DNA of 64,000 nt from positions 2,657-66,656 of the forward strand of contig DATBTL010000246.1 in assembly GCA_036559345.1 (NCBI GenBank), in the 5' to 3' direction. Source of the stretch: Chloroflexota bacterium (GTDB taxonomy: Bacteria > Chloroflexota > UBA5177 > JANWHV01). The translations under genes and the position numbers were made by a program. This document shows, in pieces, positions 20,168-41,127 of the stretch. The notes under the pieces were generated by a model. The model made no database searches, was not told where the DNA came from, and saw only the letters and a list, made by a program, of their open reading frames with translations. Within the stretch, counting starts at the first letter, position 1, and the number at the start of each line of letters is the position of its first letter.

Positions 20168-20455
20168 CTATACAGGCCGGTAGCCGAGTCCCACCGAGAT
20201 CCGATCACAGACGTCTTTGACCGCGGCTCCAACCCGAGGTACGAGATCCCCATCCAGCCGAGCGGATGCCGAGGAAATGCTGATGGCTCCTTCGACAGTA
20301 CCGTCCATGGCGCGGATCGCGGCGCCGATACAGCGAGCGCCCAACTCTCGTTCCTCGTCATCGACCGCATAGCCGGCGACACGGATTCGCGCCAGTTCCT
20401 CCCGAAGGAGAGAGCGATTGGTGGCCGGGTGTGCCCTCCGACCGCTGGAGCGCAT
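20168..20455 (-). pseudogene. IclR-family regulator, C-terminal fragment only
   Basis: ELARIRVAGYAVDDEERELGARCIGAAIRAMDGTVEGAISISS matches the IclR effector-domain end. The HTH and first half are absent. Abuts the kinase fragment. Confidence 0.6.
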
Positions 20456-21002
20456 GACCGCGACAGCCCAGGCTATCGCGGCGGGGGGCGACGGCGCGCT
20501 TGACCGGCGGTTGCGCCTCCCCGTGCACCGTGACGAGGTGGGCCGGCTGGCTACAACATTCGACCGAATGCTCGACCGTATTCAGGACACCATCGCCGAG
20601 CGCGTGCGCTCCGAGAGCCGGCTGCGCCATTTCGCCGCCGACGCCCCGCACGAGCTGCGCACCCCGCTCGCGGCGGTGAGCGGCTACACCGAGGTGCTGT
20701 TGCTGGGCGGCAAAGACGACCCGGAGACCGCCGCGCACATGCTGCGCCGGATGGACGACGAACTCGCCAGGATGAATCGTCTGGTCGGCGACCTCTTGAC
20801 GCTCGCTCGCCTGGAAGCAGGGCTGCCTATGCATGTCCAGGCCCTACCGGCGGCGCCGCTGCTGAAGGGGCTGATCGAGGAGACGCGTCTATTGGCTGCG
20901 CGCTTCGGGCGCGATCTTGTTATCGGGACCGGCCCGCCAAACGGAGAGGCCGACACGCTCACCGTACTGGCCGACTCCGATCGCCTGCACCAAATTCTGC
21001 TT
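20418..21002 (+). pseudogene. Sensor histidine kinase fragment (HAMP + HisKA only)
   Basis: HAMP-like LRPLERMTATAQAIAAGG..DEVGRLATTFDRM and H-box FAADAPHELRTPL. Homology stops at DRLHQILL, with no sensor/TM region or HATPase_c domain. Confidence 0.65.
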
Positions 21003-21564
21003 ATTCACGGTTATCCTGCCGGCAGACAGCTAACTCCCCCGCGTGGGCGCAAAAGGCTACCCAGGTACTGTTGGGGCTCGATCCCTAAACGAGTTGTGCG
21101 CTCAGGACAAAGGATAGGTGATCTTGCGTATCCCGTACCATCCAATGACGGCGATCCGCTATAGTCCGAAATCCAGGCGGCACAACCGGGCGTGCGCGGG
21201 GCCTTTGACCGTTCCTGCACATAGTAAATAACTCCTCTACCCATGCTCGCCAGCCCCAACCAACTAACAACAAGGAAGGGTATCTCACTATGTGCAGTTG
21301 CCCTCTCAACTCGGCACATGGGCTACCGCGTCTCGACGGATTGTCCAATCCCCCCAGACGCGAAGCTCGCCAGAGTCGCGAATACCCACCTCTCCGCTCA
21401 GCACGTACTTTTCGTAAGCCACAATCCCCATGAAGGGAAGCGTCCGGGCTCATCCGGATTCATCGCTCCTCCGCGCGTCGCCCGGCAATTTTGAGCAGCA
21501 ACCTTGTCCTTCGTTATGCGCCGCGTCTGGGACTGAGCAACGGAGAACTCCTACTGGACCAGTA

Positions 21565-21711
21565 CATTTGGCAGCGCATCGGCCGCCCTTGACCATGCTT
21601 TCGCCCGTTCCCCGACGCGCCCGCATCGCGCAGTACGACCTTGGCGCGCCGGATTATGACGCGCCGGCAAAGGAGATATTCGGTGGCCTCATCGCCTCGC
21701 TCGCGCCCTGA
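21565..21711 (+). pseudogene. parA C-terminal remnant
   Basis: HLAAHRPPLTMLSPVPRRARIAQYDLGAPDYDAPAKEIF aligns by eye with the intact ParA tail IAAQHYAPLHVLPPIPRANSIARVDLRATGYDAAAKELF. No Walker A region lies upstream. Confidence 0.4.
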
Positions 21712-22159
21712 CCTGCTGGTCCGGCAGATGCTTGAGGAGTCAGGCACCGGGCCGATCACCGCCGCCGATGCCTCGTTTGTCCCCATGTCTCGCGCCCTGC
21801 GGATTCCCATCGAGCGTATTGCCCCTAATCCAGATAACCCTCGGAAGTCCTTCGAGGGTTTGGCGGATCTCGCGGCCTCAACCGGGGATCGGGGCCTCCT
21901 GCAACCGCTTGTGGTGCGGCGCGACCCCGAGCGGCCTGGCTATTATGTAACGATTGCCGGGTCGCGCCGCTTGATGACCGCTCTCCTTGTGTACCAAGGG
22001 GATCTTCCCGCCAGTCAGCAGTGGGTGGCGACGCTTCCGTGCGTCGCGGACGAGGTAGACTCGGATGCCTTTGCCGACACCCTGGCCGAGAACATGGCGC
22101 GGCAAGATCTCAGTCGCGCCGAGGTGATGGAGGCCGTCCTGCGGCTTGCGCCGGGATAA
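21656..22159 (+). pseudogene. Truncated ParB paralogue (N-terminal ParB/Srx domain, no HTH)
   Basis: RIPIERIAPNPDNPRKSFEGLADLAAS..LLQPLVVRRDPERPGYYVTIAGSRRL parallels ParB at 34402. It terminates just before the position of the HTH. Confidence 0.55.
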
Positions 22160-32179: not shown

Positions 32180-33321
32180 ATGAGCACAGCCCCGCAGGTG
32201 CATTTTGCGACCCTCGATGCAGTCCTGGAACGGATCACCTACGCCAATGAGGAGACCGGCTATACCGTCGCCCGCGTCGCCACCGCACAGGGCGGCAGTG
32301 GCCTGCTTACCGTGGTCGGCTCCCTGCTTGGCGCACAGCCGGGCGAGAGTCTCCGCCTGCGCGGTGTCTGGAAGTCGCATCCACAGTGGTGCTGGGCTTG
32401 GGATCCAAGCGCACGTCGATGACCGGTCGGGCCTGGGAGGAACAGAAGGCGATCAAGGAGGTCATGCTCTTTCTCCAGGGGGTGGGAGTGTCCACCTCGC
32501 TCGTCGTGCGCATCTATAAGACCTACAGGGACGCCAGTATCTCCGTGGCCAAGAACGAGCCCTACAAGCTGGCCGGAGATGTGTGGGCCATCGGCTTCAA
32601 GACCGTCGACACGATTGCGCAGGCGATGGGCATCCCGCACGATAGCCCCCCAACGGGTCAAGGTGGGACTCCAGTTCACGCTTTCGGAGGCCAGCAACGA
32701 AGGTCACTACTATCTCCCGCAAGCCGCCCTGATCGCCACCGCAACGGCGATTCTCACCGTGGAGTCGGTGCTTGTCGAGACCTGCCTGACGGATCTCTCG
32801 GAGGAGGAAGGGGTAATCACGGAGTATCTCCCAGGCCCTGCGGGCGGCGCGACAATCCCGGCCGTCTACCTGGTGCCGTTCTACCGCGCCGAGGTGTCAT
32901 TGGCGCACGGACTCCGCCGTCTGCTGCAGGCATCGACCGAGCGCTTACCGACTTTTCAGCGTGTGGACTGGGAGGCGGCTATGACATGGTTGCAGCGTAC
33001 GACCAGGAGCACGCTGGCGCCCGAACAGGGCGCGGCAGTCCGTCTGGCCCTGACCGAGAAGGTGGCGGTGCTCACTGGCGGCCCGGGCTGTGCGAAGAGC
33101 TTCACCGTGCGCTCCATTGTCACCCTGGCCCGGGCGAAACGGGCCAGGGTCGTCCTCGTCGCGCCGCCAAACGCCTTGCCGAACTCGCGGGCATGGAAGC
33201 CGCGATGCTGCACCGGCTGCTCCAGTTGCGGCCGGGCGGGCCACCGTACTGGTCCACCGCTCCAGTTGCGGCGCCGTGTCACCGGCGAGGCGAGGACGTG
33301 ATCGGGCCCCTGCGGCGGTGA
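32180..33321 (+). pseudogene. RecD2-like SF1 helicase pseudogene (frameshifted, internally deleted, 3'-truncated)
   Basis: The RecD2 N-terminus ERITYANEETGYTVARV..LLTVVGSL..GESLRLRGVWKSHPQW continues in other frames: WEEQKAIKEVMLFLQGVGVS..., then ...LTGGPGCAKSF, then RRAAKRLAELAGMEAAMLHRLLQL. At least three frame changes; helicase motifs beyond motif I/Ia are missing. Confidence 0.75.
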
Positions 33322-33358: not shown

Positions 33359-33374
33359 TGTCGGATTTCCGACA
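33359..33374. promoter_or_regulatory. 16-bp palindrome TGTCGGATTTCCGACA (candidate parS, copy 1)
   Basis: 7-bp perfect arms. It is the exact reverse complement of the copy at 35537. Lies 109 nt upstream of parA. Confidence 0.45.
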
Positions 33375-33431
33375 GCATCTGACCCTTTTTGCACGGGATA
33401 CCGCTCGGGCCAGGGCGAAAATCCATGCATC

Positions 33432-33440
33432 TTGTCCACA
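33432..33440 (+). promoter_or_regulatory. DnaA-box-like 9-mer TTGTCCACA
   Basis: Exact match to the high-GC (actinobacterial-type) DnaA box form. A single copy, so chance occurrence is possible. Confidence 0.25.
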
Positions 33441-33482
33441 AACCCCTGGCAATACTCAACCACCACGCGTATAGTTTCTTCC

Positions 33483-34415
33483 ATGACTGCACAAGAAGGT
33501 AGGGTGTCGCGCGCTGGGACGACCGAACTCCTGAGTACGGCGAATGTCGCCGAGGCCCTGACCATCAGTCGGTCTCGCGTCCTGGCGCTCATACGCGGCC
33601 AACGGCTCCCAGCAATCAAGATAGGCCGTGAATGGCTGATCGAGAAAGCGGACTTGGGTATGGTGACTGAGCGACACGTTGGCAGACCACGGGCCGTGAT
33701 CTCCGAGCCCCCGGCGCCCAGGAAACCGGCGGGGCTGCCTGGGCAGGCGTCCAGTCCGCGCCCTGCCGCCTCTCCAGGGGCTCACCTAAGGCCGCGGACC
33801 ACCTATACGCTCGCGATCGGCGCCCAGAAAGGCGGGGTTGCCAAAACCACTACTACCCTCTATCTTGCCGCGCGCGCGGCGGCGCATTTTGGCAGCACGC
33901 CGGAACACCCAACCGTATGTATCCTGGATCGCGACGAAGCTCAGAATCTCTCGGTCCTTGCGCGCCTCGATCCAGACGTGATCGCGCCCGGTGTACGCTT
34001 ACTGGAGGGAAGCAATGTCCCCGCGCCGGCGCAGGGCTATCGCATGGTCCTCGTCGACACGCCGCCCGGGCTCGCGGCCCTGGATGCGTTGCGGGACGCT
34101 GACCTTCTGGTCGTGCCAGTGCTGGCGGAAAAGCAGGGGGTGGCCAACCTCTCGCAGTATCTGCGCCTGATCGAGGGACTGCGCCGCACGACCAATCCGC
34201 GGTTGCGATTGCTGGCCGTGCTCCCCACTATCGTGGAAAAGCGCAATGCCTTGCACCGCGATATGCTTGAGCTTATCGGACAGATTGCCGCCCAGCACTA
34301 CGCGCCGCTCCATGTGCTTCCCCCTATCCCGCGGGCGAATAGCATCGCGCGTGTCGATTTGCGCGCCACGGGGTATGACGCCGCTGCGAAGGAACTCTTC
34401 GATGCCCTCGGCTAA
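33483..34415 (+). CDS. parA: ParA-family partition ATPase with N-terminal excisionase/MerR-type HTH
   Basis: ORF 33090..34415 trimmed to ATG 33483. HTH LLSTANVAEALTISRSRVLALIRGQRLPAIKIGREWLI, then a Pro-rich linker, then deviant Walker A AQKGGVAKTT and Walker B MVLVDTPP. Confidence 0.9.
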   Translation: MTAQEGRVSRAGTTELLSTANVAEALTISRSRVLALIRGQRLPAIKIGREWLIEKADLGMVTERHVGRPRAVISEPPAPRKPAGLPGQASSPRPAASPGAHLRPRTTYTLAIGAQKGGVAKTTTTLYLAARAAAHFGSTPEHPTVCILDRDEAQNLSVLARLDPDVIAPGVRLLEGSNVPAPAQGYRMVLVDTPPGLAALDALRDADLLVVPVLAEKQGVANLSQYLRLIEGLRRTTNPRLRLLAVLPTIVEKRNALHRDMLELIGQIAAQHYAPLHVLPPIPRANSIARVDLRATGYDAAAKELFDALG

Positions 34416-35535
34416 GAGGCGGCGGGAAATCCAGTTCGCCGCTGATCTCCTGGGCGACGATCAGGGTGGCACACCATACGACAACGACGTCAAGGCAGCG
34501 GAGGGGTCGTTTCAGCGCATGGCCGACGCCTACCTGATTCCCATTCAGCGCCTCTCACCCAACCCCAACAACCCGCGACGCCAGATTACTCATCTTGAGG
34601 AACTGGCGGCGTCCATCGCCGAGACCGGACATGTGCTGCAAAACCTGGTAGTGCGCCGGCATCCCGACAACGCCGGATTCTACATCGTCACCGCCGGCAG
34701 CCGCCGCCTCGGGGCCGTGCAATTGTTGAATGATGGCGGTGTGCCCGGAGTGAGCGTCCATATCGACGCCCTACCCTGCGTGATCGAGGAAAGGTCGGCG
34801 GATCAAACCTATCTCGACGCATTGACCGAGAACGCCGCCCGGGAGGATCTTACCCGGGCCGAGCTCATGGATGCCGTCCTCTATATCAGCCGCGCCTACC
34901 GCTTCTCCGCCCGTGAAATCGCCAGGCGTATCGGGCGCCATCACTCAGACATCTCCGAATTGCTCGGCGTGGCGCGCGACGAGGAAGTGGCGACCCTTGT
35001 ACGAAGTGAGGTCATCAACACCAGCGTCGGCGCCGCCATTGCAAAGCAACCGCCGCCAGCGCGGCAGGAGATCCTGGCCGCCGTTCGGCAGCGGCATATA
35101 CGCACGGCGGCCGACGTAGCTCGCCTGGCAGCCAGGGTGACCCACAACGGCCTGCCGCCACGATCACCCGACTTCCCCGAATGGGATGGCGTCCCGGTCG
35201 CCCATCCCGGCCAGGATGCGGACGAGCCGGCCACGGTCTTTGTAACGCCCGTTGACACGAGCGCCAGGAACGCCGGCGTCCCCAACCAGAATCAACCGCA
35301 CGAAATCGAGCACTCCGCGCAATATCATGTAGGTCGTGGCGCCGCCGAGGCGCGCGCGGCGGCCCGGGACGGACTGCGCCGGGTCGCGCGCTTCCCGGAC
35401 CCTGAATTCCAGGCAGTACTCGACCTCCTTGCCTACGGCAGGGCATATCATCTGCAATGGCAGGTAGCCTTGCAGGAACTGCTGCAAGAGCGCGGCATGG
35501 TTGAACGAGAGCAACGTGCTGATGGGCCAAGCTGA
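34402..35535 (+). CDS. parB: ParB-family partition protein
   Basis: Trimmed to ATG 34402, overlapping the parA stop. IPIQRLSPNPNNPRRQ and VTAGSRRLGA (ParB box II-like GxxR), followed by HTH FSAREIARRIGRHHSDISELL. Confidence 0.9.
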   Translation: MPSAKRRREIQFAADLLGDDQGGTPYDNDVKAAEGSFQRMADAYLIPIQRLSPNPNNPRRQITHLEELAASIAETGHVLQNLVVRRHPDNAGFYIVTAGSRRLGAVQLLNDGGVPGVSVHIDALPCVIEERSADQTYLDALTENAAREDLTRAELMDAVLYISRAYRFSAREIARRIGRHHSDISELLGVARDEEVATLVRSEVINTSVGAAIAKQPPPARQEILAAVRQRHIRTAADVARLAARVTHNGLPPRSPDFPEWDGVPVAHPGQDADEPATVFVTPVDTSARNAGVPNQNQPHEIEHSAQYHVGRGAAEARAAARDGLRRVARFPDPEFQAVLDLLAYGRAYHLQWQVALQELLQERGMVEREQRADGPS

Positions 35536-35536
35536 G

Positions 35537-35552
35537 TGTCGGAAATCCGACA
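35537..35552. promoter_or_regulatory. 16-bp palindrome TGTCGGAAATCCGACA (candidate parS, copy 2)
   Basis: Begins 2 nt after the parB stop codon. Extends to 18 bp as GTGTCGGAAATCCGACAC. Confidence 0.45.
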
Positions 35553-35738
35553 CCACCCTCATGTTTCTACAGGGGGTGCGCCATGGTATCGACACCGACA
35601 ACCGAGGTGAAGGTCGGACGGCGTGGTAGAAAGCATGAATTGCCAGCACGGGGCACCAGGCGCATGCGCCGATCCATCGGAATCAGAACCCCTTTGAGAC
35701 TAGCAAGGTGGATTGGCTGAAGCGGGAAGGCTGCCGGG

Positions 35739-37556
35739 ATGGCTGAGGAAGATAACGGCCCACACACTGCCCATGAGGCGCGGATGGCCCTCGATTATGC
35801 TCGCGATCTCCTGAGAACGGCGGCAGCGGGGACTACCAAGGGCGGGTTGGGCGCCTTTCGCTCTGAGTTGGATCGCGCGCAAGAACAGCTCGCCACGGAT
35901 CCGGATGGCGCCCGTGCTCACGTCGATGCCGTGCTGGAGGCACTGGAGCAATTGGGGCTGCCGGGCAGTCATTCCGTGGACATGCTCGACGTGTTCTTCG
36001 CTCAATGGCGATCGTACGTCACCTTACGGGAGCAGCGGGGCGCACTTGCCGGCGATCCATGGCACAATGCGATGCTGTTCATCTGGACGGAGGACGGCGA
36101 GCCCCCACGCGAGAATTCCTTGCATATTCTCACCTGCCGCCTGCCTGGCGGGGACGAGCCGCCGTTTGTCCTCCCAACCAAGTTGCAAAAGAAGACCAGC
36201 CAGGAGCTCCTGCCCTGGATGACCTGGCGAGCGGATCAGCAGCCCGAGCTACAAGCCCTACAGCGGCCAGTCACGCGGTATGTGGCGCTCTACGTACGGG
36301 GTGAGCAACTCTGCTGGGACGCCTCGCCCGACTACCCCCTGTGCGACGAAGCGCCCGATGTGCGGACCCTGATGCTGCCGCCACGTCGGTGGGGCGAGCT
36401 TGCCGCGCTGCCGCCGGGAGAAGCGCCACGACCGACGCTCCCCGCACCGACACATCCATCCGCGCGTCCCGCCATGCCGGCCCCCTCAATCCTGGATCAA
36501 GATAATGTCGCCATCGGTTCGAGTACGCTCCTACCCCACACCTTCCGCGCCATGCGTATGCCTGGCCGATGGATGCGCCCCGGCAACGGCAATCCGCCGT
36601 ATTACGAGGAACTGCATGAGGGGGTAGCAGAGGCTGATCGGGTCAAAGTGCTGCTCCACCCGTCCGATGGCCGGAGCCCCTTGACTCCCGAGCAGGAAGC
36701 GGCGGCCTATGAGGCCGTGCTCGGTCTGGACGACGATAAGGTGCGCGCCTTCGCCATCGCGCTTGGCTCCTGGTTTGCCGGCACCGGCGGCGGTGACGCG
36801 CACATGCCCAAGGTCACGGTGACAGCCAACGCACTGCTGGAATTCCAGGGGGTCAAGCGCAACAAGGGCGCGTATAGACCAGCACAAAAGGAGAAGGTGG
36901 CCAATGATGTCTGGGCGCTGAATTCCATCTTCATTCGCGGGCCACAGGTCGTGTACGATGCGCGCGGTCGCCGCAAGATCGTAAAGGTGCGCTCCCGCCT
37001 GCTTGAGGTGGCGCAGGAGGACGAAACCAACCTACTGGGGGAGGACACTCCCTATGCCTTCCGCATCGCGCCGGGTGAGTGGATCAAACCACTGATTGAG
37101 GAAGGTACCCGCTACGTGGCTGTGTTGCTCTCTCCCGTCCTGCGCTACAACCCCAGACAGGGCGTGGAGTTGATCGCCATGCGCATTGGTCTTCATCTGG
37201 CCCTGCATTGGCGGTTCCGAGCGGCACAGGGCAATTTCGACCAGCCATGGAATATGACAACCCTGTTGGAGAGCACCGGGATTGAGATTCCGACGCACCG
37301 AGAACAGCGCAGGCGATTGATCGAGAACTTCGAGCGGGCCATGGACCGCCTGCGGGAGGACGGCGTGCTGGCAAGTTGGGAATACGTGCGCCTGGTGATG
37401 GAGGTGAATCCCACGGCCGTGTTCGCCGAGTGGATCACCCGCACGGTGCGCGTGATGCCGCCCCGGGCGGTGACCGATCAGTACGCGGGCATTGCCAGGC
37501 GGCATCGCTTAGAGGTGGCGGCGAGTAAGCGCCGTGCGCCGCGACAGACGGTTTAG
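35739..37556 (+). CDS. Hypothetical 605-aa protein (possible replication-associated protein)
   Basis: Long uninterrupted ORF with a GGGAAGG RBS. No family recognised. A Pro-rich linker (PPGEAPRPTLPAPTHPSARPAMPAP) separates two halves. It ends 10 nt before the first iteron. Confidence 0.75.
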   Translation: MAEEDNGPHTAHEARMALDYARDLLRTAAAGTTKGGLGAFRSELDRAQEQLATDPDGARAHVDAVLEALEQLGLPGSHSVDMLDVFFAQWRSYVTLREQRGALAGDPWHNAMLFIWTEDGEPPRENSLHILTCRLPGGDEPPFVLPTKLQKKTSQELLPWMTWRADQQPELQALQRPVTRYVALYVRGEQLCWDASPDYPLCDEAPDVRTLMLPPRRWGELAALPPGEAPRPTLPAPTHPSARPAMPAPSILDQDNVAIGSSTLLPHTFRAMRMPGRWMRPGNGNPPYYEELHEGVAEADRVKVLLHPSDGRSPLTPEQEAAAYEAVLGLDDDKVRAFAIALGSWFAGTGGGDAHMPKVTVTANALLEFQGVKRNKGAYRPAQKEKVANDVWALNSIFIRGPQVVYDARGRRKIVKVRSRLLEVAQEDETNLLGEDTPYAFRIAPGEWIKPLIEEGTRYVAVLLSPVLRYNPRQGVELIAMRIGLHLALHWRFRAAQGNFDQPWNMTTLLESTGIEIPTHREQRRRLIENFERAMDRLREDGVLASWEYVRLVMEVNPTAVFAEWITRTVRVMPPRAVTDQYAGIARRHRLEVAASKRRAPRQTV

Positions 37557-37566
37557 ACAGTGGTAT

Positions 37567-38024
37567 CCCTCATCGGATGTGACGCCACCGGGTCAGGGTT
37601 GTTGCAACAGACGTTTTGATTGGATGACCGTGCGCACATCCCCTCATCGGGTGTGACGCCGCCTTGTTCGTTGGCGAGAATATCCTCTTTACCCCTCATT
37701 GGGTGTGACGCATTGCTACCGCCCGCCAACAGTGTCGCGCGAACGAACGGTATGCGAGCCCATTCGGCTGGGCATCGAGAGCCGTAAAGGCCCGGTTGCC
37801 CGGGCACGGCGGCATCTGATCGCTCAGAGCACCGTCCGATTGTCCACCTGTCCTTCCGACAAGGGGAAACGCTCGGCGCCCCTCATCAGGTGTGACGCGG
37901 TCGCATGGATCTGACAAAGGAGCGGTGACACCGTGCTTTTCACCCTCATCTGATGTGACGCCCTCACGGGCCGTGGCGGAATCCCTCATGGACTGTGGCG
38001 GAATCCCTCACGAGGTGTGACGCT
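37567..38024 (+). repeat. Iteron-like direct repeat array (8 copies of a ~20-bp motif)
   Basis: Copies: CCCTCATCGGATGTGACGCC (37567), CCCTCATCGGGTGTGACGCC (37641), CCCTCATTGGGTGTGACGCA (37693), CCCTCATCAGGTGTGACGCG (37880), CCCTCATCTGATGTGACGCC (37943), degenerate CCCTCACGGGCCGTGGCGGA (37961), CCCTCATGGACTGTGGCGGA (37983), CCCTCACGAGGTGTGACGCT (38005). All lie on the same strand. Confidence 0.75.
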
Positions 38025-38049
38025 CAGCCAGAGAAAACGGCTTCCCTAT

Positions 38050-38067
38050 TAGATCTACTAGATCTAC
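38050..38067 (+). repeat. Tandem 9-mer TAGATCTAC x2 in a locally AT-rich patch (possible unwinding element)
   Basis: Two exact tandem copies, each containing GATC, 25 nt after the last iteron. Flanking CTATTAGATCTACTAGATCTACC is unusually AT-rich for this sequence. Confidence 0.45.
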
Positions 38068-38139
38068 CACGGGCCTTCATCACGGCGCTACCGGTGGTAC
38101 ATGTCAGAATAGAGGCGGCGAACACCAGGTTCCGCCACG

Positions 38140-39765
38140 GTGCGGGTATGTTCCCGCCGCGTGATAGGTGAAGAAAGGGACGTCAACGTGCAGGCTCAGG
38201 CGAGAATACGCGACCGAAGTCCGCGATGCGAGCGCGAGCGTGCCGCCAGACCAACACCCGACCAATCGCAAGACTACCCCAGCGGGCCAGACGCCAGCCA
38301 GCAATCGCGCGCCTCCGAGGGGTGCGCACAAGGGCAAGTCGCCCTGACCTGGTGCCCACCAGGGATAGGGTCCGCTAGGACCGGCGGTACCACCGCGCCA
38401 GAGGAGGAGGATCGCGACCGCCCTACCATTGTCGTCCAGGACACCGCTCATCGATCCGGGTTTACGCTTGTACCGAACCAGCTGCTCTTCGCCAGGGGCT
38501 TGACGCACGGCGCCAAGCTCACCTACGCCCTCTTACTGGGCTACGCATGGCAGGAGGGCAGTTGCTTCCCCGGGCAAGAGCGCCTAAGTGAGGATCTCGG
38601 TGTAGAGCGCAAGGCGGTCATCCGCTATCTCAAGGAATTGAAGGACAGCGGCATGGTGCGGGTAATCCGGCGTGGCCTCGGGCAAACAAATCTCTATATC
38701 CTGCCGAAGCTGGCAGATGTCGCGTTGTTGGCCAAGGAGCCAGTTTCATCGCCTGATGTCCCCCAAATCGGATATCAGCAAGTCCCGAGTCTGGGCCAAC
38801 CGGTTGTCTTGGGTAGCGGACACTACGTACACCCAGCGGACAAGACACAGAAAAGAAGTCATTCGATTCGACTCGACTCCTGTCAAGCGGAATCAATGCC
38901 TGTGGCGAAGGCGCCAATTACCCTGCTTGCGTCCCAACGGATGCGGTTACGCTCAGCTATCCGCGGTGAAGAGCCATGCCGCGACAAGCCGGATTCACCG
39001 CCCCAGGATAGCCAGTCTCCAGCTGGACTCACTGGGCACATCGCCCCAGGAGACTCCAGTCCCGCCGGCGCATGCGACGCCTTGGTGCGACCGCAAGCGC
39101 CAAATCGGTCATTCCGGAAATCCTCTTCCCGTGCCACGCGGCGGAATGTTGCGCCAGACGTGCCGCCGCATGAAGCCGAGAAAGCGGTGGCGGCGATCCT
39201 GGAACCGCTCCGCCGAACGTTCCGTGATGCCGCATCGAATCGGGCGACCATCACGCGGGCAGTACACCTTCTTGATTGCTCTGGGCTTGAATCAGCAGTG
39301 TTTATCCGGTTCTTGCACGAAGCGGCGGCACGCACGCGCGGCAGTCTACAGGTTGGCGTCATAACGAGTAACCCGATGGCGTATTTCTTCGCCTGCCTGG
39401 TCCAGCTTCTCGACGATACGGTCCATCCGGACGCTCCTCCTGAGCCCGGAAGGCCACGGAGGGCGGGACCGCCAGGAGGAGCGCCCAGCCATGACGCCGT
39501 GGCCTGTAGCCCCGACGATCATCCTCTTTGGGCGCGGGTACGGGAGGAACTGGCCGCCACCATCGCGGAAAGAAGCTACCGGGAGATGGTCGCGCCTACC
39601 CATGTGATCGCCGATGACGGGTTGGTGCTGCGCGTGGCGACGGGCTCCGCCTTTCAGCGTGACTGGCTCACCAATCGGCTTGGCAAGAGAATTACCGACA
39701 TCCTTTCCGACCTCGGCCGTGAGAACCCGCGGGTTGAATTTGAGGTGCCACAAACTGTTACCTAA
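38140..39765 (+). CDS. Putative replication initiator: wHTH (HTH_36-like) domain plus DnaA-N-terminal-like C-terminus
   Basis: FTLVPNQLLFARGLTHGAKLTYALLLGYAWQEGSCFPGQERLSEDLGVERKAVIRYLKELKDSGMVRV fits the plasmid/phage replication-protein HTH pattern. C-terminal LWARVREELAATIAERSYREMVAPTHVIADDGLVLRVATGSAFQRDWLTNRLGKRITDIL resembles DnaA domain I. Start is GTG 38140 or GTG 38188 (AAGAAAGGGA RBS). Confidence 0.7.
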   Translation: MRVCSRRVIGEERDVNVQAQARIRDRSPRCERERAARPTPDQSQDYPSGPDASQQSRASEGCAQGQVALTWCPPGIGSARTGGTTAPEEEDRDRPTIVVQDTAHRSGFTLVPNQLLFARGLTHGAKLTYALLLGYAWQEGSCFPGQERLSEDLGVERKAVIRYLKELKDSGMVRVIRRGLGQTNLYILPKLADVALLAKEPVSSPDVPQIGYQQVPSLGQPVVLGSGHYVHPADKTQKRSHSIRLDSCQAESMPVAKAPITLLASQRMRLRSAIRGEEPCRDKPDSPPQDSQSPAGLTGHIAPGDSSPAGACDALVRPQAPNRSFRKSSSRATRRNVAPDVPPHEAEKAVAAILEPLRRTFRDAASNRATITRAVHLLDCSGLESAVFIRFLHEAAARTRGSLQVGVITSNPMAYFFACLVQLLDDTVHPDAPPEPGRPRRAGPPGGAPSHDAVACSPDDHPLWARVREELAATIAERSYREMVAPTHVIADDGLVLRVATGSAFQRDWLTNRLGKRITDILSDLGRENPRVEFEVPQTVT

Positions 39766-39959: not shown

Positions 39960-39966
39960 ATAGCCC

Positions 39967-39986
39967 TTACATGAACGTTCATGTAA
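39967..39986. promoter_or_regulatory. Perfect 20-bp palindrome TTACATGAACGTTCATGTAA (LacI-type operator)
   Basis: Central CG dyad typical of LacI/GalR operators. Starts 8 nt after the -10 element, so it covers the predicted transcription start. Confidence 0.6.
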
Positions 39987-40026
39987 AGGTGCCGTACGGC
40001 GGGTGCCATACGTGGCGGAGGCCGGA

Positions 40027-41127
40027 ATGTCGACAATCGTGGACATCGCACGAGTCGCGGGAGTGTCGGTGCAGACCGTGTCCGCGGTCATCAACGATAA
40101 GGCCGGCATCTCGGAGGCCACGCGCGCGCGCATACGCCAGATCATCAAAGAGTTTGACTACCAGCCCAACCAGTTGGCGAGTAGCCTGCGCAGCAAGCGC
40201 ACCCGTACGATCGGCATCCTGGTTCCCAGCATCACCAACCCGTACTGGCCCGAGATGGTACGCGGGGCCGAGGATGTGGCGCACCGCGAGGGGTATGTGG
40301 TCTTCCTTTGCAATACGGATGGTGACCAGACCAAGCTCGATACCTACATCCGGGCCCTTCGTCGTCAGCGCGTGGCTGGACTGTTTTTTACCGGCGGGGG
40401 CGAGATCGCGATCGCCGAGATCGCGGCGCTCGTGGCCGGCGGCGTCCATCTGGCGCTCAATGAGAGTCGGTCGCGTCACGAGAAGGTAGTGACGGTGCAT
40501 GTGGATGATCATCGGGCGGGCTACGATGCGACGGAACATCTGCTGGATCTCGGTCATCGACGCATCGGGGTCATTGCTCCACTCGATACCGCGGGCGCCG
40601 GACGTCGCGCTGGCTACCGCACTGCCTTGGGCGAATGGGGAATCAGCGTTGACCCTGAGCTGATGATCCCGGCGGCCTTCGATATGGAGAGCGGGCAGAG
40701 TGGCGCCCGGCGTCTGCTGGCCCTGGCCACATCGCCTACCGCGATCGTCGCGGGCAACGACATGATCGCGATCGGCGTGATTTCCACCCTGAAGCAACAG
40801 GGAAAGCGCGTCCCCGAGGATGTGGCGGTGATCGGGGTCGATAACATCCCGATGGCCGCGCTCTACGACCCACCGCTGACCACCATCGCCCAGCCGCTGT
40901 ATGAAATGGGCGCATCCGCCATGCAGGCGATCCTCGATCGGGTGCGCAATCCAGCGCTTCCTGGGGTCGCCCTTACCTTCGCCACCCCCCTGATTGTGCG
41001 GCGCTCGACCGTGGCGACCGCCATCACCGAGGAGGAACCCCAGCCGGGAGCAGCACCTGACACGCGCACTCCCGGACCTGGGGCTGAACGCCCGCCCGTG
41101 CTATACGAGGAGGTGTCCATGAAGTAG
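40027..41127 (+). CDS. LacI family transcriptional regulator
   Basis: Trimmed to ATG 40027 (GGAGG RBS). HTH STIVDIARVAGVSVQTVSAVIN. Confidence 0.9.
   Translation: MSTIVDIARVAGVSVQTVSAVINDKAGISEATRARIRQIIKEFDYQPNQLASSLRSKRTRTIGILVPSITNPYWPEMVRGAEDVAHREGYVVFLCNTDGDQTKLDTYIRALRRQRVAGLFFTGGGEIAIAEIAALVAGGVHLALNESRSRHEKVVTVHVDDHRAGYDATEHLLDLGHRRIGVIAPLDTAGAGRRAGYRTALGEWGISVDPELMIPAAFDMESGQSGARRLLALATSPTAIVAGNDMIAIGVISTLKQQGKRVPEDVAVIGVDNIPMAALYDPPLTTIAQPLYEMGASAMQAILDRVRNPALPGVALTFATPLIVRRSTVATAITEEEPQPGAAPDTRTPGPGAERPPVLYEEVSMK

Follow-up and report, generated by a model that had tools for sequence, protein, structure and literature searches.

The closest described replication systems are those of the iteron plasmids and of the second chromosome of Vibrio cholerae. 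In structure, domains 2-3 of RctB, the initiator acting at oriCII of that chromosome, are homologous to RepE, pi and RepA, iteron initiators with two winged-helix domains (PMC5397143). Initiators of the RepA_N type bind DNA through their N-terminal domain and are thought to contact host replication proteins through their C-terminal part (PMC5703833). Here we consider a locus at positions 33,359 to 39,765 of a 64,000-nt stretch of the Chloroflexota contig DATBTL010000246.1 (“the window” below is this whole stretch). It consists, in order, of a parS-like palindrome, parA, parB, the palindrome again, an open reading frame (ORF) of 605 amino acids (aa), a set of iterons with an origin core, and a gene for a winged-helix protein with a DnaA_N domain. 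We believe that it is, with somewhat better than even probability, a plasmid-type maintenance core of the low-copy type, i.e., a ParABS partition system joined to a replication module; the host of this core is a Chloroflexota-like bacterium. The functional plan is the familiar one of an iteron plasmid carrying ParABS, of which F, P1 and Vibrio chromosome 2 are examples, and the module, judged by the defining sequence features of these families, is outside Rep_3, RctB, RepA_N and DnaA and probably outside DnaD. The sequence-only reading, made from the letters before this analysis, described a self-contained partition and replication module with a poorly described replication system. The first point is supported for a low-copy plasmid type. 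As to the second, the 605-aa protein belongs to no Pfam, NCBIfam or PHROG family, neither replication protein has a named relative, and literature searches gave no description of the 605-aa family or of a plasmid protein with DnaA domain I.

The 605-aa ORF, for which no recognisable family had been proposed, is real; it has full-length homologues at 56-64% identity. Both replication proteins are uncommon: a search of 5.8 billion clustered proteins gave 13 relatives of this gene and 14 of the last gene of the module, none of them named. The N-terminal ~260 aa of the 605-aa protein are variable and the C-terminal ~340 aa are conserved. It has no match in Pfam and NCBIfam (E 0.1), PHROGs, PDB sequences, phage genomes or IMG/VR viral contigs. 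In particular, the Pfam and NCBIfam searches at this threshold do not place it in Rep_3 (PF01051), and phmmer and hmmsearch against PDB sequences, RctB fragments included, gave no match to RctB. A profile built from 100 members of the family recovered from the PDB sequences only the XRE helix-turn-helix (HTH) of distant members, and no Rep.

The AlphaFold2 model of the protein was made from a 13-sequence alignment and has a mean predicted local distance difference test (pLDDT) score of 64.6; residues 260-600 are mostly at pLDDT 75-94, and the N-terminal 260 aa are poorly modelled. The best PDB matches of this model in Foldseek are RctB domains 2-3 (E 3.2e-5 to 1.4e-4, probability 1.0, target template modelling (TM) score 0.50-0.53), followed by RepE54-DNA complexes (E 0.13-0.4, target TM score 0.45). 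For the C-terminal half the model predicts a pair of winged-helix domains whose fold is like that of RctB domains 2-3 and RepE. The earlier statement that the initiator candidates do not resemble known Reps needs correction at the level of the predicted fold, which is RctB/RepE-like for this protein and, in its winged helix, RepA_N-type/DnaD_N-like for the second one (see below). Like RctB, the protein is a candidate initiator of ~600 aa with extra domains around a predicted two-winged-helix core; unlike RctB, it has no sequence similarity to that protein, belongs to a different phylum and has an extra partner with DnaA domain I. The predicted fold is also that of RepE (F), pi (R6K), RepA (pPS10) and RepA (P1), the match to RepE54 being the weaker one; however, the protein is not a Rep_3 member, and each of these initiators is less than half its size.

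Eight 19-bp iterons CCCTCATNNGGTGTGACGC (also written CCCTCATNNGRTGTGACGC) follow the 605-aa gene, all on the + strand. None occurs elsewhere in the window; the chance expectation is 0.35, and eight were reached in 0 of 100 shuffles. With a position-weight matrix the eight score at least 19.4 and the next best site of the window 12.2; the same scan found no iteron-like site, either operator-like or partial, 5' of the 605-aa gene or elsewhere in the window. The search for repeats in the region turned up no further class. The iterons are without GATC, and no 39-mer-like sites were seen. Four of the iterons are dispersed and four stand in tandem (Table); the tandem block, its degenerate middle pair included, is kept in two relative loci, L003 and L008. 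The spacer between iterons 3 and 4 (37712-37879, 187 nt) retains its length in L003 (187-189 nt) and several blocks there (GCGAGCCCATYCGGC, GTTGCC), with no coding evidence.

The origin core adjoins the tandem block and includes the GATC repeat TAGATCTACTAGATCTAC within 38046-38068. No other part of the gap is as rich in A+T: its A+T content over 30 nt is 0.60-0.63 against the window mean of 0.36, near the 99.9th percentile of the window. It is identical in the window, L003 and L008 despite diverging flanks, and is present in L010; in the phage-like loci it reads TATATCTATGATATCTAC, GATC being replaced by TATC. A CAGAG(A/T)AAA box with a doubled TA(G/T)ATCTA element is found 3' of the iterons wherever enough downstream sequence exists. 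We propose that the origin core is the unwinding element. Thus, both the eight direct repeats and the AT-rich GATC repeat of the sequence-only reading are borne out, the former by the shuffles and the latter by its composition and its conservation in relatives. The non-coding gap said to hold them exists, but its length of 583 bp is obtained only if the last gene is counted from 38140; with the start codon GTG at 38188 the gap is 631 bp.

As in oriCII, direct repeats lie beside an A+T-rich region, a parAB operon is nearby and GATC motifs are present in the origin. The iterons of oriCII are Dam-dependent 11/12-mers, whereas those of the window are 19-mers without GATC, which occurs here in the unwinding-element-like repeat (TATC in the phage-like relatives); neither sites like the 39-mers nor a DnaA box were seen. 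The arrangement of ~19-bp iterons phased by 22 bp beside an A+T-rich element is that of iteron plasmids, and the second, dispersed set, comparable with sets of the incB/incC type, could serve copy control. Unlike in the plasmids with RepE, pi or RepA initiators, all iterons of the window are 3' of the gene, and there is a replicon-encoded DnaA domain I instead of DnaA boxes.

In eight relative lineages (605-aa homologue at 32-94% identity) repeats with a GGYGTGAC core directly follow the gene. The nearest are L003, L001 and L020 (homologue at 78-94%), with eight iterons CCCTCATNNGGTGTGACGC in the window's spacing pattern (75, 52, 189, 64, 19, 22, 22 here) and a last-gene homologue at 58%. L008 and L009 (63%, with parA-parB before the gene) have the window's iterons and a very different, possibly truncated winged-helix gene. 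In L010, to which L017-19 are nearly identical, a homologue at 57% with a divergently oriented parB-parA upstream is followed by GCCGCCATNNGGTGTGACGC and a 429-aa protein; the latter is 23% identical to the window's last gene product and aligns with it over all three of its modules (hhalign probability 99.1). The phage-like L011-13 (41%; L011 carries a terminase) have three 22-bp tandem repeats TATCCGCCCCCAGGTGTGACGC and then a DnaB_C/AAA_25 helicase with a Toprim primase, and have no winged-helix/DnaA_N gene. The three homologues at ~32-36% are followed by ACCTGCCCCGAGGTGTGACGG twice directly past the stop and a helicase gene of the L011 type before the contig end (L023), by GAGGTGTGACGG just past the stop codon (L024, where the contig ends), and by CCCCCATNNGGYGTGACAT with the GGYGTGAC core directly past the stop (L025, likewise at the contig end).

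Three facts follow from this list. L011 and L023 are without the winged-helix/DnaA_N gene and keep the iteron core. L008 keeps the window's iteron beside a winged-helix protein that tblastn does not recognise as related to the window's. Finally, the half-site GGTGTGACGC of the iteron does not vary within the family and the other half differs between lineages, as two winged-helix domains of unequal conservation would give. As far as gene content and repeats go, the iterons track the 605-aa protein rather than the second protein. Because of the fold match and these three facts we regard the 605-aa protein as the best initiator candidate, and the role of a bystander, in which the earlier reading had left it, is less likely than that of an iteron binder.

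The wider family is large. A profile search of 1.84 billion representative proteins gave 884 clusters (50% identity) related to the C-terminal core, so that the superfamily is sizeable and unannotated; its clusters come from elements of both plasmid-like and phage-like character. One origin code is common to the close relatives (~32% identity and above): GGYGTGAC iterons, the CAGAG-A-rich box and the doubled TA(G/T)ATCTA element. The relatives on sequenced plasmids (PLSDB) reach 22-27% identity only; they are found on Bacillaceae megaplasmids and a few others, and several have a C-terminal XRE HTH. No convincing iterons were found beside the distant plasmid homologues L014-L016. In L015 (3590-6888 of the Haematospirillum jordaniae plasmid NZ_CP014527) an XRE-tailed homologue of 27% identity directly follows a RepC (RP-C) gene; the XRE-tailed homologues on Bacillaceae megaplasmids are annotated as transcriptional regulators.

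The second replication protein likely starts at GTG 38188, where L003 has ATG. In the model it consists of a winged helix (~80-178), a four-helix bundle (327-412) and DnaA domain I (446-520) joined by long disordered linkers. Pfam gives HTH_36 (PF13730, E 3.4e-12) and DnaA_N (E 4.7e-8), so a winged-helix, DnaA_N-like gene had been named correctly at this place. TIGR00362 (DnaA) matches over domain I only (ORF residues 464-537, 20.6 bits vs the cut-off of 343.9); the AAA+ domain III and the DNA-binding domain IV of DnaA are not matched. Foldseek assigns the C-terminus to DnaA domain I (4tps, 2e0g), and the alignment with domain I of B. subtilis DnaA is gapless over 76 residues and keeps the Leu-Trp start and the Phe-x-Arg-Asp-Trp-Leu patch. 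The N-terminus matches the staphylococcal N-terminal domains of the RepA_N type (4pql, 4pt7 and 5kbj, E 3e-3 to 1e-2) and three kinds of PHROG family (“DnaD-like helicase loader”, “replication initiation protein” and “O-like”); two relatives, L010 and P0012, match DnaD_N. For the four-helix middle domain neither Pfam nor Foldseek gave a match to DDBH2, the C-terminal domain of DnaD-like replisome organisers, and the whole protein has no match among the PLSDB plasmids.

The N-terminal winged helix is structurally like those of the RepA_N-type initiators (pSK41, pTZ2162), of the pPR9 chimera and of DnaD, and the protein is modular in the manner of pPR9 Rep, with its DNA-binding N-terminal domain, dispensable linker and helical C-terminal part (PMC5703833). 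The likeness to RepA_N is structural only, as Pfam RepA_N (PF06970) is not matched. Unlike the RepA_N proteins, this one matches HTH_36, has no origin inside its gene, stands beside a separate RctB/RepE-like protein and ends in DnaA domain I rather than in the DnaG-binding five-helix domain. An origin of the RepA_N style within the gene was considered and rejected: 38188-39765 contains no repeat family, and no iteron-like site scores there.

Classical iteron plasmids need host DnaA and DnaA boxes for helicase recruitment, and it is through domain I that DnaA makes contact with the replicative helicase or with DnaD. The origin described here has no DnaA box at one mismatch or fewer. Because of this, and because the phage-like relatives have a helicase and a primase in the same position, we infer that the second protein may recruit the host helicase as an adaptor or co-initiator.

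It is tempting to propose the following mechanism. The 605-aa protein would act as the initiator, each of its predicted winged-helix domains reading one half of the 19-bp iteron. Monomers would load onto the four tandem iterons phased by ~22 bp, and this loading would open the adjoining A+T-rich element CAGAGAAAACGG...TAGATCTAC x2. The four dispersed iterons nearer the gene would probably titrate or handcuff the initiator, giving copy control as in P1 and F. The second protein would bring a helicase-recruiting domain of the DnaA type to an origin without a DnaA box, a position that the phage-like relatives would fill with their own DnaB-like helicase and primase. We presume that this whole explanation, i.e., a plasmid-type core with the 605-aa initiator and a helicase-recruiting partner, is rather more probable than its negation. 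A stronger form of it is possible but doubtful: an undescribed two-protein initiation, in which an iteron binder of the RctB/RepE fold from an uncharacterised superfamily would work with a replicon-encoded partner carrying DnaA domain I, and this partner would replace host DnaA and the DnaA boxes.

The division of labour between an iteron binder and a separate helicase-delivery function recalls Lambda O/P and IncQ RepC/RepA/RepB. The phage-like relatives have genes for a DnaB-like helicase and a Toprim primase next after the initiator and its iterons; in the window, the helicase-delivery position is held by a protein with a domain of the helicase-recruiting type. This comparison is a functional analogy: no homology was detected, and the Lambda iterons are inside the O gene. 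The phage-like cassette itself (L011 10001-14294; also in L012, L013 and L023) reads as a small HTH_17 gene, a distant 605-aa homologue, three 22-bp iterons, an unwinding-element-like motif, a DnaB-like helicase and a Toprim primase, a logic resembling that of IncQ plasmids.

Table. Features of the partition and replication module (positions in the window)
Feature	Position	Strand	Description
parS-like palindrome, copy 1	33359..33374		TGTCGGATTTCCGACA, 16 bp; 5' of the parA promoter region
Candidate parAB promoter, sigma-70-like	33446..33475	+	CTGGCA-18-TATAGT; 9/12 matches in a consensus scan
parA, 310 aa	33483..34415	+	excisionase/MerR-type HTH (HTH_17) fused N-terminally to a ParA/MinD-type ATPase
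parB	34402..35535	+	ParB_N and ParB HTH; ORF opens at 34246
parS-like palindrome, copy 2	35537..35552		TGTCGGAAATCCGACA, reverse complement of copy 1; begins 1 nt past the parB stop
605-aa protein, proposed iteron-binding initiator	35739..37556	+	alternative start ATG 35784
Four dispersed iterons	37567..37898	+	CCCTCATNNGRTGTGACGC at 37567, 37641, 37693 and 37880; spacing 74, 52, 187
Four tandem iterons	37943..38023	+	at 37943, 37961, 37983 and 38005; spacing 18, 22, 22; middle two degenerate
Origin core (proposed unwinding element)	38029..38068	+	CAGAGAAAACGG, short spacer, CTATTAGATCTACTAGATCTACC with two GATC sites (doubled TAGATCTAC)
Second replication protein, 525 aa	38188..39765	+	ORF opens at 38140

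The partition part is of a more usual kind. As in F and P1, a ParA with an HTH and a ParB, here with putative parS sites, adjoin the replication genes. ParA matches HTH_17 (E 1.6e-8, residues 16-58), CbiA (6e-9) and AAA_31 (3e-11) in Pfam and ParA_partition in NCBIfam (E 7e-13, under the family's cut-off); it is a Walker-type ATPase with an N-terminal HTH, as in type Ia, although this HTH is excisionase/MerR-like, unlike the P1/F type. ParB has ParB_N (E 6e-10) and TIGR00180 (66.4 bits vs the cut-off of 58.45), its HTH_ParB match (E 0.006) being under the cut-off of that family; from the ORF translation its probable start is ATG 34402, which overlaps the parA stop. The promoter candidate for the operon is weak, since the region contains 2 such sites and 1.4 are expected. 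An orphan 172-aa ParB_N protein is encoded at 21641-22159, far from the operon and with no adjoining ParA partner.

The two palindromes are the sole matches across the 64 kb, even at 2 mismatches (0.07 expected; two matches reached in 0 of 100 shuffles). L008, with a ParB 34% identical to the window's, has another palindrome, GTCCAAAGTTTGGAC, which is duplicated as well: one copy overlaps the start of parA, and the other is within the 3' end of parB; a duplicated palindrome of its own beside a diverged ParB is the pattern expected of centromeres that co-evolve with ParB. We consider the window's palindromes putative centromeres (parS) for ParB. ParA, with its ATPase and N-terminal HTH, and ParB would act on these two sites flanking the operon; the parts are identified by homology, and the mechanism is proposed. 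The earlier identification of an HTH-parA fusion followed by parB agrees with the family matches above, and the repeated palindrome was found as described, in two exact 16-bp copies that bracket parAB. By contrast, the DnaA-box-like 9-mer TTGTCCACA at 33432 is a chance match: the window has 4 one-mismatch sites against 5.3 expected.

Several observations weigh against the explanation preferred here, some of them by favouring a rival. The likeness of the 605-aa protein to RctB and RepE is at the fold level only, in a model from 13 sequences (mean pLDDT as above) with an aligned root-mean-square deviation of ~9 A, and sequence searches connect the family to no Rep. Its distant plasmid homologues carry the annotation of HTH regulators, several of them with the XRE tail and one beside a RepC gene, which means that not every member of the wider family need be an initiator. 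Cumulative GC skew is flat over 30-46 kb, with no switch at the origin; the inflection that the sequence-only reading had suggested looking for at about 37.6-38.1 kb is absent. All flanking genes, over ~8 to 52 kb, run in one direction (+ strand) through the origin.

The last two points are what one would expect if the module were the remnant of a plasmid or plasmid-prophage integrated into, or recombined with, the main chromosome and not driving its replication. We consider this unlikely, although it is the rival that survives best. A recD2-like gene in three-frame fragments breaks off directly ahead of the first parS, and such a truncated gene abutting the module is compatible also with an integrated or mosaic element. 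The window contains an integrase and a PIN gene, the block of initiator, iterons and Rep in L003 has no parAB within ~8 kb upstream, and L021 has a truncated copy of the 605-aa gene. However, all four ORFs of the module are complete, no decay is seen in the iterons, in either parS copy or in the unwinding-element-like motif, and even the degenerate iteron pair is retained in different lineages. Absence of skew is common in plasmids. The window has neither tRNA nor rRNA genes (tRNA and Rfam scans were empty) and no core genes among those sampled, which are for sugar-acid and amino-compound catabolism, ABC transporters and local regulators; this, together with the intact module, is in favour of a possible secondary replicon (megaplasmid or chromid), as the sequence-only reading had it. 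The sampled genes also include the integrase, the PIN toxin, the orphan ParB_N protein and truncated or decayed genes.

A different assignment of roles, which seems to us quite improbable, is that the winged-helix/DnaA_N protein is the true iteron-binding initiator, RepA_N-like, and the 605-aa protein a regulator or copy-control factor. The second protein could be an initiator in its own right: among its N-terminal structural matches is a Rep-DNA complex (set 4pql, 5kbj, 4pt7), the PHROG matches include “replication initiation protein”, and the iterons are directly 5' of its gene. Its relatives stand alone after parA/parB-like genes on plasmid/ICE-like contigs (ICE, integrative and conjugative element) with no 605-aa homologue. 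An N-terminal domain of the PF13730 type belongs to the proven initiator of pPR9, a Rep that supports replication (PMC5703833). However, L011 and L023 keep the iteron core and the unwinding-element-like motif with no such protein, L008 has identical iterons beside a very different one, the stand-alone relatives have no adjoining iteron arrays, and the gene contains no repeats, unlike RepA_N replicons with the origin inside rep. The stand-alone relatives are at L026 8001-9587, L028 6847-7920 and L029 8001-8912, directly after parA and a small gene, those of L026 and L028 with DnaA_N and that of L029 without it; Replic_Relax, TraG-like genes and a PhdYeFM/PIN pair are found on these contigs. No iterons beside them were convincing.

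A cointegrate of two replicons (initiator with iterons; parAB with the winged-helix Rep), whose replication proteins do not cooperate, is suggested by the occurrence of each protein type alone elsewhere (L011 and L023 vs L026, L028 and L029) and by L029, where an HTH_17-ParA fusion as in the window, a small gene and the winged-helix protein follow each other with nothing between, but it is very unlikely: at least three diverged lineages, those of the window, L003 and L010, have initiator, iterons, unwinding-element-like motif and three-module protein in this same order, parAB is not always adjoining and varies in position and orientation, which argues for the two replication genes as the linked unit, and the region has no second origin-like repeat set.

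If the stronger, two-protein form of the explanation is correct, this would be an RctB-like initiator outside Vibrionaceae, in Chloroflexota, and a clue to the origin of such large initiators. To our knowledge, there is hardly any work on how plasmids and chromids of Chloroflexota replicate, and the replication system described here would escape standard replicon typing altogether. The protein core together with the cis code (iteron core, A-rich box, doubled TAGATCTA) could be used for finding origins and replicon boundaries in metagenome bins, and the replication module could underlie vectors for these bacteria. DnaA domain I on a plasmid winged-helix protein presents a testable idea for helicase recruitment without DnaA boxes.

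Some neighbouring features deserve mention. The RecD2-like helicase fragments occupy three frames (ORFs 32180-32422, 32386-33321 and 32579-33301, with AAA_19/AAA_30 matches), and the gene (32180-33301) ends just past the Walker A motif, directly before the first parS; it looks like a pseudogene at the left edge of the par-rep module. The ORF at 20418-21164 has HAMP and HisKA and no ATPase domain; it is probably a truncated sensor kinase, one more sign that the accessory region may be decaying. The window begins, at its left end, with a PIN-domain toxin-like gene (19-603, - strand) and a tyrosine integrase (988-2001, + strand), both of which would suit mobile or plasmid-borne DNA. A near-perfect 26-bp palindrome, CCCTTACATGAACGTTCATGTAAAGG, at 39964-39989 is the most A+T-rich 30-mer in the region and lies just 5' of a LacI-type regulator gene (40003-41127), of which it is probably the operator.

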